NCBI GenBank assembly: GCA_964016885.1
Contig: OZ024742.1
Span: 35,526,001 to 35,590,000 of the forward strand
Direction of reading: 5' to 3'
Source of the DNA: Eledone cirrhosa
Lineage: Eukaryota
Length of the DNA: 64,000 nt
This document shows, one piece after another, positions 7,264 through 61,783 of this stretch. Made by a program: the position numbers and the translations under genes. A model generated the notes under the pieces. That model worked only from the letters and a program-made list of their open reading frames with translations, did not search any database and was not told the origin of the DNA. Position 1 is the first letter of the stretch. Each line of letters begins with the position of its first letter.

Positions 7264-7560
7264 ATACCTTTGTTTTTAATTGGGGTGTTTATATATGTGC
7301 GCGCGTACACGTGTAGGTATGGGTGTGTGAGGACCGGAGTGGTCAGCTGGACATTAACAGGATGTGAAACAATGACCGTTCAGTGGGCAGCTGTGGGGTT
7401 AAGTACTGTTCGGTATTTGTGCCATGTTAGGGTGAGCCCGTTTAGCATCAAAACAACATACTTAAATGTCATTACAGATGTTGTTGTGCCGCTGACTAGA
7501 CCCTTATAAAATTATACATATCAATCAATTAATCTATCTATCCATATATATATATATATA

Positions 7561-7760
7561 TATTTTATAGAAGGAGCTTCTACAGGACTAGTACTGTTTC
7601 ATTCAGATGAAATCTTCATAGAGCTTCCTGAAGATTTCATCTGAATGAAACAGTACTAGTCCTGTAGAAGCTCCTTCTATAAAATAAAAAAATGTTTACT
7701 CTGCCATGTATTGAGTACCTTACTTACTGTGGTTATCCCCGACTCAACCCGGGACCTACG
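7561..7760 (+). mobile_element. Fold-back mini-element with hammerhead, (TA)n-bounded (family A)
   Basis: 58-bp perfect inverted arms 7561-7618/7629-7686 plus tail; relative at 57190-57366. Confidence 0.8.
7621..7673 (+). ncRNA. Type I hammerhead ribozyme (family A)
   Basis: GAGCTTC-CTGAAGA-TTTCATCTGAAT-GAAA-CAG(TACTAGTC)CTG-TA/GAAGCTC; perfect 7-bp stem I, weak stem II. Confidence 0.75.
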
Positions 7761-18117: not shown

Positions 18118-18502
18118 TAATTGTTTCTACTTTTGGCACAAGACCAGCAATTATCCCAGTGTATTACTGGTACTTTATTTTATCGACCCCGTAAGGATGA
18201 AAGCAAAGTTAACCTCGGCGGGATTTGAACTCAGACCATAAAGGGCCGTAACTCTTTGCTGCAAAGCATGGCATCAGACCCTCTACCGATATTGCCAATC
18301 CACCACCCTTGATTGATATAATTGTTTCTACATTTGGCACAAGGCCAGCAAATACCAGTGTATTACTGGTACTTTATTTTATCGACCCCGTAAGGATGAA
18401 AGGCAAAGTTAACCTCGGTGGGATTTGAACTCAGAATGGCAAGGGCCGTAACTCTATGCGTCAAAGCATGGCGTCCGACCCTCTACCGATACTGCCAATC
18501 CA
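18118..18502 (-). mobile_element. Two tandem Nin-type SINEs
   Basis: Full consensus twice; TTGATTGATATA duplicated around the first copy. Confidence 0.85.
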
Positions 18503-25021: not shown

Positions 25022-25069
<48 letters not shown>

Positions 25070-25071
<2 letters not shown>

Positions 25072-25263
25072 CGAAGGAAATGTGGTAAGGAACCAGATTG
25101 ACCATAACGCACCAGAGTACTCAATACTTAGGGTAGTAGAGTAGGAAATAAGAAAAAGTATGACCCTGACGGCAGAGCTCAAGCCGTTTCGACGGCTATT
25201 TCTGGAGTCCAGAAATAGCCGCCGAAACGGCTTGAGCTCTGCCGTCGGGGTCATACTTTTTCC
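25070..25263 (-). mobile_element. Fold-back mini-element, (TA)n-bounded (family B)
   Basis: ~55-bp inverted arms 25152-25206/25208-25262 plus tail; copies at 30001, 60450, 61701. Confidence 0.8.
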
Positions 25264-25596
25264 TATATATATATATATATATATATACATGAGTCTACCT
25301 TGCCACATACTGTAGCACATAGATTCTATTGGAGAATTGCGGTAGGAATACACGTTTCTGTTAAATACTCAACCACTTACACTAACATTTAATACGCAAG
25401 TGATTCAATTGAACTAAAAACTTTAAAACTCAAGGCCCAAATCAAACGAGACCCGTTTAGGGAGGCCCCAGTAGGAAAGCCGTGGCAGAGTTCGAAACAT
25501 TGTATAAAGGATGGCACATAGAGTAGGATAAGTAATTAGACCGTTCGTTTGTTCAATGGTCTCTGGCTAATTTTAACTTCCACCTTCTTCTCAAAA

Positions 25597-30000: not shown

Positions 30001-30199
30001 ATGAGTAGGACCCCGACGGCTGAGCTCAAGCCGTTTCGACGGCTAATTCTGCAGTAAATTTAGTCCAGAATTAGCCGTCGAAACGGCTTGAGCTCAGCCG
30101 TCGGGGTCCTACTCGTTCATATTACCCACTCTACTACCCTAAGTATTGAGTACTTTGGTGCGTTATGGTCCATCTGGTTCCTTACCCCATTTCCTTCGT

Positions 30200-30200
<1 letters not shown>
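30001..30200 (+). mobile_element. Fold-back mini-element (family B)
   Basis: 49-bp perfect arms 30003-30051/30066-30114 plus tail, flanked by (TA)n. Confidence 0.85.
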
Positions 30201-30234
<34 letters not shown>

Positions 30235-42382: not shown

Positions 42383-42941
42383 TATGTATAGAAATTTCGT
42401 ATTTCTAAAGAAATACGGTTTTATGAAGGCGTAGCTATGCAAACATCGGGGGTGGGATAACACCCTCTGGTGGTGTCTAGCAGAAGCAAGGGGGACAACC
42501 GTCTATGCATTTCAGGCTTGACTGGCCTTCGTCATGACGGTCCCTCCCACCGCATGCTACCTCTGGACTTGAAAACAGTCGAGAATATATAGTTTTCTAG
42601 CCTGTGTAATACATATTTGTATAAAGCTATGCTTGAAGCGAAATCTTATTTCTTTTTTATAAGTTGAGCCAACTTATGCAGCTTCATAGGCAAATGCGAT
42701 TACTCACCTTATTTACACAGACGAGAAAACTATATATTGTCGACTGTTTTCAAGTCCAGCAGTAGCAAACGGTGGGAGAGACCATCCTGACGAAGGCCAG
42801 TCAAGCCTGAAATGCATAGACGGTTGTCCCCCTTGCTTCTGCTGGACACCACCAGAGGGCGTTAACCGCCCCCCCCCGGTGTTTGCATAGCTACAGCTTC
42901 CTAAAACCGTATTTCTTTAGTAATACGAAATTTCTATACAT
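42383..42941. mobile_element. Inverted pLTR pair with a hammerhead in each arm
   Basis: ~230-bp inverted arms 42383-42610/42712-42941. Confidence 0.85.
42781..42824 (+). ncRNA. Minimal type I hammerhead (mirror copy 42498-42541 on minus strand)
   Basis: ACCATC-CTGACGA-AGGC(CAGTCAA)GCCT-GAAA-TGCA-TA/GACGGT. Confidence 0.8.
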
Positions 42942-58350: not shown

Positions 58351-58450
58351 CATGGAACTCTTTTAACCATCTTTTGATCTTATATATTATATATATATAT
58401 ATATATAATGAAAATAAAGCAAAGAAGCCTTCAATACATCAAAAGTCTTT

Positions 58451-58495
58451 ATTAGCCAACAATGTTTCGTCCTATTAAGGACTCATCAGGGCAAT
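58451..58495 (-). ncRNA. Minimal type I hammerhead
   Basis: Reverse complement of 60212-60256. Confidence 0.8.
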
Positions 58496-59769
58496 CAAAA
58501 CCACAAGAAGTACTATCGGCCAATACAAGCCGAAAACTCCGAAGACTATGGAGTGTTATACACTAAAGTATTGGAAGATTATGGGTAAAAATATATAATA
58601 AAAATCACTAAGGATGTGTATAACATTTTGAACCATATTACAAATATAGTCCAAAGCAAAAAAAACCTAGAGCTAAACAAAGGTGGTTATATAGAGCGGG
58701 AACTATATATAATACAATATAATATAATATAATATACTTGTAACAATATTAAAATAAAAATAAAAATTAAAAATTAAAATTAAAAGGCACAATATACATA
58801 TATATATATATGTACGCACACGTACGCACATATACATATACGTCAATACACATATCCATCATTAACAGCACAAATTAAACCTTATTAAGAGTTAAAATAT
58901 AAAATATTAATTTATCAAATAGGGTTTTCGAGTCTTTTATCTGGGTTGTTTCCTAAGTTTTTACTTAACTGCATGTGAGACCTAAGTAAATAGTTTTGTT
59001 TTTGTTAGTTTTAATTTCCGGTTGATTTATTTATTTATTTATTAATACTACTGTGCATTGTATTTTCTGTCTGGCCCTTATTCACTCATCCACATATATG
59101 TCTGTTTACCTACCTTGTAATTATAAATAATTATATATTATATTATGTTCATTATTTTATATTGAAGTTGTTATTGTACTATTGATCCTTATTACTTACC
59201 GTTGATTTTATGTACCATTATGATATGTTAAATTTTATATATCATGTAAGATGTTTATATTTTTGTACCATCATAATTTTGGGTATTGTACAATTTATAT
59301 TTTTTCTCACCTACTCTGTAACTCTATATGAATTGATTTGTTAACTTACATGCCATTATATATTATATATATTATTATATTATTATTATAGTATTATTGT
59401 GACATCTATATTGTTTGTGTAAATTAACCGGAGATTATCTATTATATTATATTATATATTATATAATTATATAGTTTATTATATATTATATGTGTTACTT
59501 TTAATCATTTCATTACTTCATGTATATTAGATATACGTATTATTATTATTTTTATTCCTACTATGCTTATTTATATTTTAACTCTTAATAAGGTTTAATT
59601 TGTGCTGTTAATGATGGATATGTGTATTGACGTATATGTACGTGTGCGTACGTGTGCGTACATATATATATATGTATATTGTGCCTTTTAATTTTTATTT
59701 TTATTTTTAATTTTTATTTTAATTTTAATTTTAATTTTAATATTGTTATTATATTATATTATATTATAT

Positions 59770-59950
59770 GGATTGGCAGTATCGGTAGAGGGTCGGACGC
59801 CATGCTTTCCAGCATAGTTACGTCCCTTTACGATCTGAGTTCAAATCCCGCCGAGGTTGACTTTGCCTTTCATCCTTACGGGGTCGATAAAATAAAGTAC
59901 CAGTAATGCACTGGGTAATTGCTGGCCTTGTGCCTAAAGTAGAAACAATT
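59770..59950 (+). mobile_element. Nin-type SINE inserted in (ATATT)n of the right pLTR arm
   Basis: Full consensus; absent from the left arm. Confidence 0.9.
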
Positions 59951-60211
59951 ATATTATATTATATTATATTATATTATATTATATTATATTGTATTATATA
60001 TAGTTCCCGCTCTATATAACCACCTTTGTTTAGCTCTAGGTTTTTTTTGCTTTGGACTATATTTGTAATATGGTTCAAAATGTTATACACATCCTTAGTG
60101 ATTTTTATTATATATTTTTACCCATAATCTTCCAATACTTTAGTGTATGTACACTCCATAGTCTTCGGAGTTTTCGGCTTGTATTGGCCGATAGTACTTC
60201 TTGTGGTTTTG

Positions 60212-60256
60212 ATTGCCCTGATGAGTCCTTAATAGGACGAAACATTGTTGGCTAAT
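60212..60256 (+). ncRNA. Minimal type I hammerhead
   Basis: ATTGCC-CTGATGA-GTCCT(TAAT)AGGAC-GAAA-CATTG-TT/GGCTAAT. Confidence 0.8.
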
Positions 60257-60399
60257 AAAGACTTTTGATGTATTGAAGGCTTCTTTGTTTTATTTTCATA
60301 ATTCTTCGGCTCTGTTTAATTACATTGAGCTATACCTTTTACTGTCATTTCTATAATACGAAGAGGGTGTTTAACTCCAACACGCTCCAGTATTTTAAC

Positions 60400-60449
<50 letters not shown>

Positions 60450-60451
<2 letters not shown>

Positions 60452-60624
60452 CAAAGGAATTGTGGTAAGGAACCAGATGGACCATAACGCACTAGTGTAC
60501 TCAATACTTAGGGTAGTATAGTGGGAAATAGGAAAAAGTATGACCCCGACGGCTATTTCTGGACTATTCCAGAAATAGCCGTCGAAACAGCTTGAGCTCT
60601 GCCGTCGGGGTCATACTTTTTCCT
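60450..60624 (-). mobile_element. Fold-back mini-element (family B, one arm internally deleted)
   Basis: Matches 25070-25263; a further fragment lies at 61701-61760. Confidence 0.75.
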
Positions 60625-60814
60625 ATATATATATATACATTCTCTCTCTGCCACACACTTAAATATGTGTGCGTGTGTGTGTTTGTATAATATATTATAT
60701 ATATATATATTAAAGAGTTAAACAAGTTTCAATCAGTATATCAGAGAATGAGTTTTACAGTAGATTGATTAAATCTTAACCATTTAACATCTCAGGGTAT
60801 GTCATATATCATTA

Positions 60815-60869
60815 TATTTTGTCTGATGAGGACGTACTGTTGTACCTCCGAAATATGTATAATAAAATG
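60815..60869 (+). ncRNA. Type I hammerhead in mini-element 60710-60915
   Basis: TATTTTGT-CTGATGA-GGACGTACTGTTGTACCTCC-GAAA-TATGTA-TA/ATAAAATG. Confidence 0.85.
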
Positions 60870-61588: not shown

Positions 61589-61704
<116 letters not shown>

Positions 61705-61783
61705 AACAAGTAAGACCCCGACGGCTGAGCTCAAGCCGTTTCGACGGCTAATTCTGGACGTTATATATATATATATATATACA

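Follow-up and report, generated by a model that had tools for sequence, protein, structure and literature searches.

Head-to-head hairpin stubs of a Hydra-clade PLE in Eledone cirrhosa end at two fixed template positions that likely mark an RNA start and a ribozyme cut

Hairpin repeats that occur in thousands of copies in the genome of Eledone cirrhosa are represented several times in the window (the whole 64,000-nt stretch of contig OZ024742.1 analyzed here). These hairpins are a known kind of PLE debris, 5′-truncated ends lying head to head. We hold with good confidence that they are paired stubs of a Hydra-clade element inserted in (TA)n, each probably made of two target-primed run-off cDNAs that began at two fixed sites and were then joined. 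What is new is a concentration of arm ends at two points of the template, with single-base precision. Judging from sequence features, these two points at the hairpin centers likely mark the start of an RNA and the cut of a ribozyme.

Results

Hairpin copies in the window

We number template positions backward, starting at the end of a natural reference copy (L117:1951-5475). In the window copy at 30003-30202, position -142 corresponds to 30062, -101 to 30103, start site A (-82) to 30122 and the end of start site B to 30202. The features are as follows.

30003-30202: stub 1, the whole hairpin, with (TA)n on each flank and an 80-nt tail
30003..30058, minus strand: tail-less arm (arm A) of stub 1, an inverted copy of the PLE end
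30059..30202, plus strand: tail-bearing arm (arm B) of stub 1, carrying the sense strand of the PLE between about -145 and start site B
30060..30065, plus strand: initiator-like TTAGTC, with the putative capped transcription start at the A at 30062 (-142)
30072..30108, plus strand: 3′ half of a type I hammerhead, predicted from sequence, with the cut-site pile-up
30072-30079, plus strand: hammerhead stem II 3′ strand, followed by GAAA (30080-30083) and stem III (up to 30101)
30102, plus strand: hammerhead C17, with the predicted cut at 30102/30103 (-101) and then the stem I 3′ strand (30103-30108)
30120..30122, plus strand: start site A (TAT, -82), the junction of tail-less arms with the (TA)n target
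30123..30202, plus strand: the 80-nt tail between sites A and B, which in tandem copies extends into the PLE ORF's open frame
25068..25266, minus strand: stub 2, of the TATTT subfamily, with arm B at 25068-25205 and arm A at 25206-25266
60448..60626, minus strand: stub 3, of the same family, with arm A reaching about -140
61700..61759, minus strand: a lone arm A that ends at -141 and runs into (TA)n, with neither partner arm nor tail

Stub 1 folds into a perfect 49-bp stem (z = -16; equal stability in 0 of 200 shuffles). The outer end of its arm A lies at or near start site A, clipped by ~9 nt, and the inner end lies near -146. In stub 2, arm A ends at -142, with an extra G at 25205 that is common to the partner arm, and arm B of stub 3 carries an internal deletion between short direct repeats. 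A reading made earlier from the sequence alone had counted four hairpin copies here; three of them are indeed hairpins, whereas the fourth is the single tail-less arm at 61700-61759.

Family size and comparison of the arms

The hairpin family lies far above chance in this 3.0-Gb genome, because a 14-mer from the tail has 45,418 exact matches against 14 for its reversed control, and a pattern for the hairpin center, in which both arms end just upstream of stem II, is found at 18,125 places against 0 for its control. A census of 74 tail-bearing arms, drawn from the first tail matches along contig C1 with the tandem array L159 set aside, comprised 58 short arms with an inverted partner, 7 that continue upstream, 7 unpaired arms and 2 rows that represent one tail-tail pair. 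The array set aside (G000:C1:14.235-14.242 Mb) repeats a 58-bp unit made from part of the tail; another array, with a 55-bp unit made from ORF sequence, adjoins a multi-unit tandem of the element (L324).

Among 102 hairpins, identity between arms is 96.3% within a copy and 91.3% between copies, in agreement with the earlier remark that arms match within each copy and differ between copies. The subfamily key is equal in both arms of 78 hairpins, against 18.6 expected; 6 rare variants are common to both arms and 140 occur on one arm only. The hairpin centers take 88 distinct forms, none of which occurs more than 3 times. The suggestion that the palindrome had formed more than once is thereby borne out, in that it is made anew at each insertion. 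Four loci count against one RNA always serving both arms: arms from different subfamilies are joined at L115 and L149, and an arm ending at -101 is joined to a longer one at L152 and L157.

Two further patterns were noticed in these alignments. At site A, 8 of the 102 hairpins (L004, L008, L011-L013 and others) read CCTAT in arm A and CATAT in arm B, perhaps reflecting two templates. Seven loci of different subfamilies (L031-L033, L035, L037-L039) carry an identical double change in the loop of stem III, on one arm only, which may come from a hotspot of repair or from a sequencing artefact.

With its high copy number, its fixed outer ends and its TA target, the hairpin unit might be supposed to move on its own, either as a MITE or as a SINE-like unit that propagates itself. 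We give this almost no credence: the centers are nearly as numerous as the hairpins, the ends do not form terminal inverted repeats, and the sequence runs on into an RT ORF. Nor does anything point to the hairpins spreading along a route from retroelement to pseudo-MITE, as had been proposed, given the one-sided tail and the diversity of centers. Stubs may act as donors of further stubs.

The parent element

Arms that continue upstream pass into sequence that encodes RT and endonuclease, on the same strand as the tail. A search for PLE ORFs attached to the tail, suggested by the sequence-only reading, likewise found the tail continuing into a PLE open frame. Twenty longer loci contain ~3.5-kb units, partial tandems and inverted 5′ copies. 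At L104, an open frame of 786 codons with YRDD encodes an RT plus a C-terminal endonuclease. This protein has 2,054 homologs, and the best Foldseek match to its predicted structure (pLDDT 87) is TERT (E 2e-8); Pfam and PDB sequence searches of the PLE ORF gave no match.

The endonuclease is of the GIY-YIG type, with a VIYQ...YIGL motif that is conserved in the alignment and that resembles, by eye, the Hydra rows in the supplement of PMC8557442. The element has the hallmarks of EN+ PLEs, namely a TERT-like RT in a single ORF, tandems of the pLTR, an inverted 5′ copy and a one-sided tail. Its protein also has the features of the Hydra clade: the DKT motif, a linker of the form CxCX5C, CxxC and CxH situated around E and N, and an absence of CCHH. 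RWR stands in place of RWK; among 26 aligned proteins, 17 have RWK, 8 have RWR and 1 has neither. The Neptune clade was our first candidate and was dropped on comparison with the clade definitions set out in PMC8557442. Classified by the clade features listed in that paper and by comparison by eye, the element is an undescribed Hydra-clade PLE family.

A hammerhead ribozyme probably split by the template end

As had been recognized, the stubs carry the 3′ half of a hammerhead, made up of the 3′ strand of stem II, GAAA, stem III, GUC and the 3′ strand of stem I; the hammerhead is of type I. It had also been claimed that the 5′ half was overwritten by an inverted copy of the 3′ half. A search for CTGANGA directly upstream of GACGGCTA returned 10 matches, none of them a core, of which 9 are point variants inside arms and 1 is a junction with another repeat; GACGGCTA mirrors the 3′ strand of stem II and is not the true 5′ strand. 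Copies with the missing half do exist among the longer insertions, with the variant UUGANAA (U3-A8) rather than the CUGANGA that had been predicted. The true 5′ half, ACCCC-YTGANAA-G-N-T-CGGCTA, has 5,839 matches genome-wide against 0 for the control. Instead of having been overwritten, the ribozyme 5′ half most likely lies upstream of the template's 5′ terminus in stubs.

Among 60 complete cores, 46 read UUGANAA, where N7 takes each of the four bases; in 10, C3 faces A8 (a mismatch), and 4 are otherwise different. About 45 nt separate the stem II strands. The core boxes and the three stems occur in order in an alignment of complete copies, in which 92% of stem cells pair. Copies are 89% identical, and covariation amounts to 1 pair changed on both sides, which is not above shuffles. 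Rfam reported no hammerhead at the four window copies among the best 150 of 202 matches listed. A U3-A8 core is among the PLE hammerhead variants described in PMC4209133, and searches for CUGANGA overlook the ribozyme found here.

The window also holds other fold-back elements. Another PLE-like insertion, at 58405-60302, has long inverted arms with a canonical hammerhead in each; Rfam places Hammerhead_1 at 58451-58495 and 60212-60256, at 29 bits, under the gathering score. A third family, with a CTGATGA...GAAA core and (TA)n flanks, has copies at 60823 (plus strand) and 8242 (minus strand) and also interrupts L040. Additional fold-back elements, whose CTGANGA-like cores sit within or close to the loops, are at 7560-7688, 57309 and 42448-42874.

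Two fixed start sites

Arms meet (TA)n at one of two sites, A or B, which are 80 nt apart and each end in TAT. A genome-wide pattern covering A+A and A+B pairs gave 13,212 rows, 300 of them (150 loci) A+A and the remaining 12,912 A+B; counted over these two classes, arm A stops at one site in ~99% of pairs. B+B pairs were seen at L061, L304 and L309.

Either arm may be the longer in long insertions, and arm A can exceed arm B by up to thousands of bases. It extends to -1683 against -285 for arm B at L107, to -2715 against -278 at L113 and to -661 against -90 at L386, and at L111 it likewise holds sequence absent from arm B. Because a fold-back copy cannot hold sequence that its template is without, the arms are best read as two cDNAs. 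Among 20 further long loci, both arms could be resolved against a single reference at ~7, and 0 pair a long arm with an arm ending at -136 to -147; from these ~7 loci there is a weak indication that both arms use the same kind of RNA.

These observations bear on the earlier proposal of a snap-back at stem II, in which one cDNA folds at the ribozyme hairpin and copies itself. Self-priming of this kind would be in keeping with arms that are more alike within a copy, with the 6 rare variants common to both arms and with the overlaps of 1-4 nt at many centers. However, arm A can far exceed arm B and the tail of arm B is absent from arm A, so that neither copies the other, and arm A stops at its one site in nearly all pairs. 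Arms of mixed subfamily exist, rare variants lie on one arm only in 140 cases, and the extra G and ribozyme-cut end described below are sense-strand marks that occur on both arms. The idea of a hairpin-primed second strand is at odds with a mirror arm that has a fixed start of its own and can be thousands of bases longer. We regard snap-back as decidedly unlikely and prefer two separately primed cDNAs.

A first footprint at -142 with a cap-like G

We examined 72 start-site hairpins (144 arms), a sample enriched for the best family matches. Their inner ends lie between -132 and -147, mostly from -136 to -147, and are most frequent at -145, -142 and -141; no arm extends past -147, and both arms stop at the same template position despite the 80-nt difference in length. 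Position -142, in loop II of the ribozyme, corresponds to the A in the motif TTAGTC or TCAGTC, which resembles the initiator consensus.

In untruncated copies, -143 is T in 78, C in 11 and G in 0. Where a purine precedes the -142 end, it is G in 93 and A in 7 (first 100 of 3,916 rows, by eye), whereas G was found in 14 of 100 at the -141 control (first 100 of 4,803 rows, by eye). A scripted count gave G in 25/29 at -142 versus 6/28 at -141, and G that the partner arm does not explain in 12 versus 2. The extra G at -142 occurs in both the TAATT and TATTT subfamilies, and 8 listed loci have it on both arms (by eye). Such an untemplated G is expected if an RNA cap is copied. An untemplated 5′ G at the initiator of full-length L1 insertions is read in PMC9341517 as a copied mRNA cap, and an internal Inr/DPE promoter is described for Penelope of D. 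virilis in PMC2377424. Several results count against a cap: the ends are spread from -132 to -147, 13 of the 25 G cases at -142 could be the partner arm's own G, at the -145 peak the next base is A, not a cap-like G, in 22 of 22 arms, and 0 of 9 full-length units begin at -142. From these marks we infer that -142, within loop II of the hammerhead and ~60 nt upstream of site A, may be where Pol II starts a capped transcript.

The same two-primer insertion could also have left the edge at -136 to -147 if it were an RT stall, or the nuclease-trimmed edge of a protein-bound RNA, rather than a capped start. The ends do spread over ~12 nt, the -145 peak has its added A, and the RNA 3′ ends at template jumps (see below) cluster ~70-115 nt past site B, like a protected fragment. 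Neither stalling nor trimming fits as well with an extra G that is specific to -142, at an initiator-like motif and in both subfamilies, and that appears on both arms of the 8 loci; furthermore, the uncapped ribozyme-cut ends gain A or T instead. We consider this explanation unlikely relative to a capped start at -142.

A second footprint at the predicted ribozyme cut

Genome-wide, 522 mini-hairpins match a pattern that admits ends from -98 to about -115. The first 50 of the 522 are all A+B, and an end at exactly -101 is found in 25 left and 25 right arms. Among the same 50, the neighboring ends are at -100 in 2 and 4 arms and at -103 in 1 and 1 (left and right), and those at -102, in 9 and 10 arms, are inflated by CG overlap. 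Both arms lie exactly at -101 in 20 of the 50, with 5 more that are blunt and ambiguous, and the bases added at -101 ends are A in 28, T in 16 and C in 6. Position -101 is the first base after C17, exactly at the predicted cut, and would be the 5′ end left by self-cleavage of the ribozyme in vivo. A first version of the cut-site pattern gave 501 matches, most of them false, with 20 of 30 loci proving ambiguous or due to expansions of a G run, and its total is not used here.

By eye, cut-site stubs seem enriched in two subfamilies, which account for 15 of 20 against 47 of 100 start-site stubs (L191-L205, L251-L285). One of the subfamilies under-represented at the cut site often has the C3-A8 mismatch, which may mean weaker cutting.

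Template jumps and long copies

Pieces of the element that start at -141 to -145 are joined directly to ORF sequence at L286, L287 (twice), L288, L307, L309, L310 and L318, as are pieces that start at -101 at L172, L299 and L304; the junctions lie mostly 70-220 nt past site B. Because they are seen at these jump junctions, the same two boundaries also arise without a palindrome. This weighs against long inverted insertions that later collapsed by deletion at the palindrome center. Variable centers with small templated insertions and the internal deletions in some arms (as at 60448) would suit such a history, but collapse would not halt at a single base of the template across thousands of loci, append a G or stop at the cut, and it leaves out the boundaries in non-palindromic junctions. 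We judge it very improbable, and return to cDNAs that run off at these positions.

At L287:314-973, three short units run from -145 to ~113 nt past site B, resembling a retrozyme array except that no whole ribozyme is present. One junction is repeated among them, a pattern expected from a short RNA that was circular or was used twice. We discard a -142 start for full-length copies, since it is seen in 0 of 9 full-length units (with 40 regions taken for read-through at site B). Long copies are therefore likely to come from read-through tandem RNAs.

Discussion

A model for stub formation

In the mechanism we favor, the enzyme would cut (TA)n, and each target strand would prime at one of the two sites on sense RNA. 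On RNA from the element's own promoter, the cDNAs would reach the cap after ~60 and ~140 nt, so that only short 'strong-stop' cDNAs form; on ribozyme-cut RNA, they would run off after ~20 and ~100 nt. Their ends would be joined via microhomology (short overlaps) or short insertions, and long copies would begin at start sites further along read-through tandem RNAs.

A more detailed version seems to us evenly balanced between right and wrong. Capped sense RNA would be copied by two enzymes at once, one per strand and each with its own start site. The ribozyme, which would span the transcription start, would form only in read-through RNA or between the two ends of one transcript, and would do its cutting in vivo. 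The paired strong-stop cDNAs, numbering in the tens of thousands, would then be a fossil map of start and cut, and tandems would be built by infrequent jumps back onto the RNA from its 5′ end.

Comparison with known systems

Retroviral strong-stop DNA is a short run-off cDNA whose priming site lies near the RNA 5′ end; here two such cDNAs, in place of one, would be fixed head to head in the genome. L1 insertions, as reported in PMC9341517, likewise carry an extra G at the initiator, with the difference that two run-off cDNAs would be paired here.

A biochemical parallel is the Poseidon element PAc of Anolis. In vitro, as described by Frangieh et al. 2024 (PMC11167929), its tail is delimited by two internal sites at which RT starts, and extension takes place on both strands of the target. 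Further likenesses in that account are an AT-rich target, a ribozyme just upstream and an ORF start that overlaps the region. It describes no strand preference between the starts and no reads ending at the ribozyme cut, whereas here ~99% of pairs combine one A with one B (A+A and A+B counted) and genomic copies end at the cut.

Hydra-clade elements as defined in PMC8557442, including Hydra-1_Obim, share the C-terminal endonuclease, DKT, CxCX5C, the lack of CCHH, CxxC/CxH and the (TA)n target. They are described there as generally <3 kb, against a 3.5-kb unit here, with RWK rather than RWR; and the ribozyme core of Hydra-1_Obim is canonical, compared by eye, which sets it apart as a different family from the present one with its U3-A8 core. 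PLE hammerheads described by Cervera and De la Pena 2014 (PMC4209133) are likewise of type I and located in the pLTR, with a palindromic loop 3 and an irregular helix II base, and the Schistosoma element Cercyon is given there with the same U3-A8 core. Unlike the variants presented in that paper, the ribozyme here has a stem III that is complete at 6 bp, and a stretch of ~45 nt that separates the strands of stem II and would hold the transcription start. In a non-LTR retrozyme, by comparison, tandem monomers each carry a whole ribozyme, whereas the stubs and the short tandem at L287 are without the 5′ half of the core.

EN+ PLE insertions as described by Craig et al. 2021 (PMC8557442) and Arkhipova et al. 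2013 (PMC3846280) likewise have a head-to-head inverted copy, a tail at one end, partial tandems and a microsatellite target. The tail is 80 nt here against 30-40 there, and, unlike the insertions portrayed in those two papers, 58 of the 74 sampled copies are short paired stubs with arms mostly ending at one template position. Self-priming on an antisense template has been proposed for PLEs in PMC3846280; as worded there, the proposal is close to the snap-back idea and unlike our model of two primers on sense RNA. In the literature, mostly freely accessible main texts, we found no report of cap-G or ribozyme-cut footprints in PLE insertions.

The origin of the inverted ends, the template strand and hammerhead cutting in vivo are treated as open in the texts of PMC3846280, PMC8557442 and PMC11167929. 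Against these accounts, the stubs offer single-base, testable genomic answers, in the form of a sense template, a probable cap at -142, a probable cut at -101 and one cDNA per start site, and they would explain a very abundant hairpin repeat that might otherwise be misfiled as a MITE.
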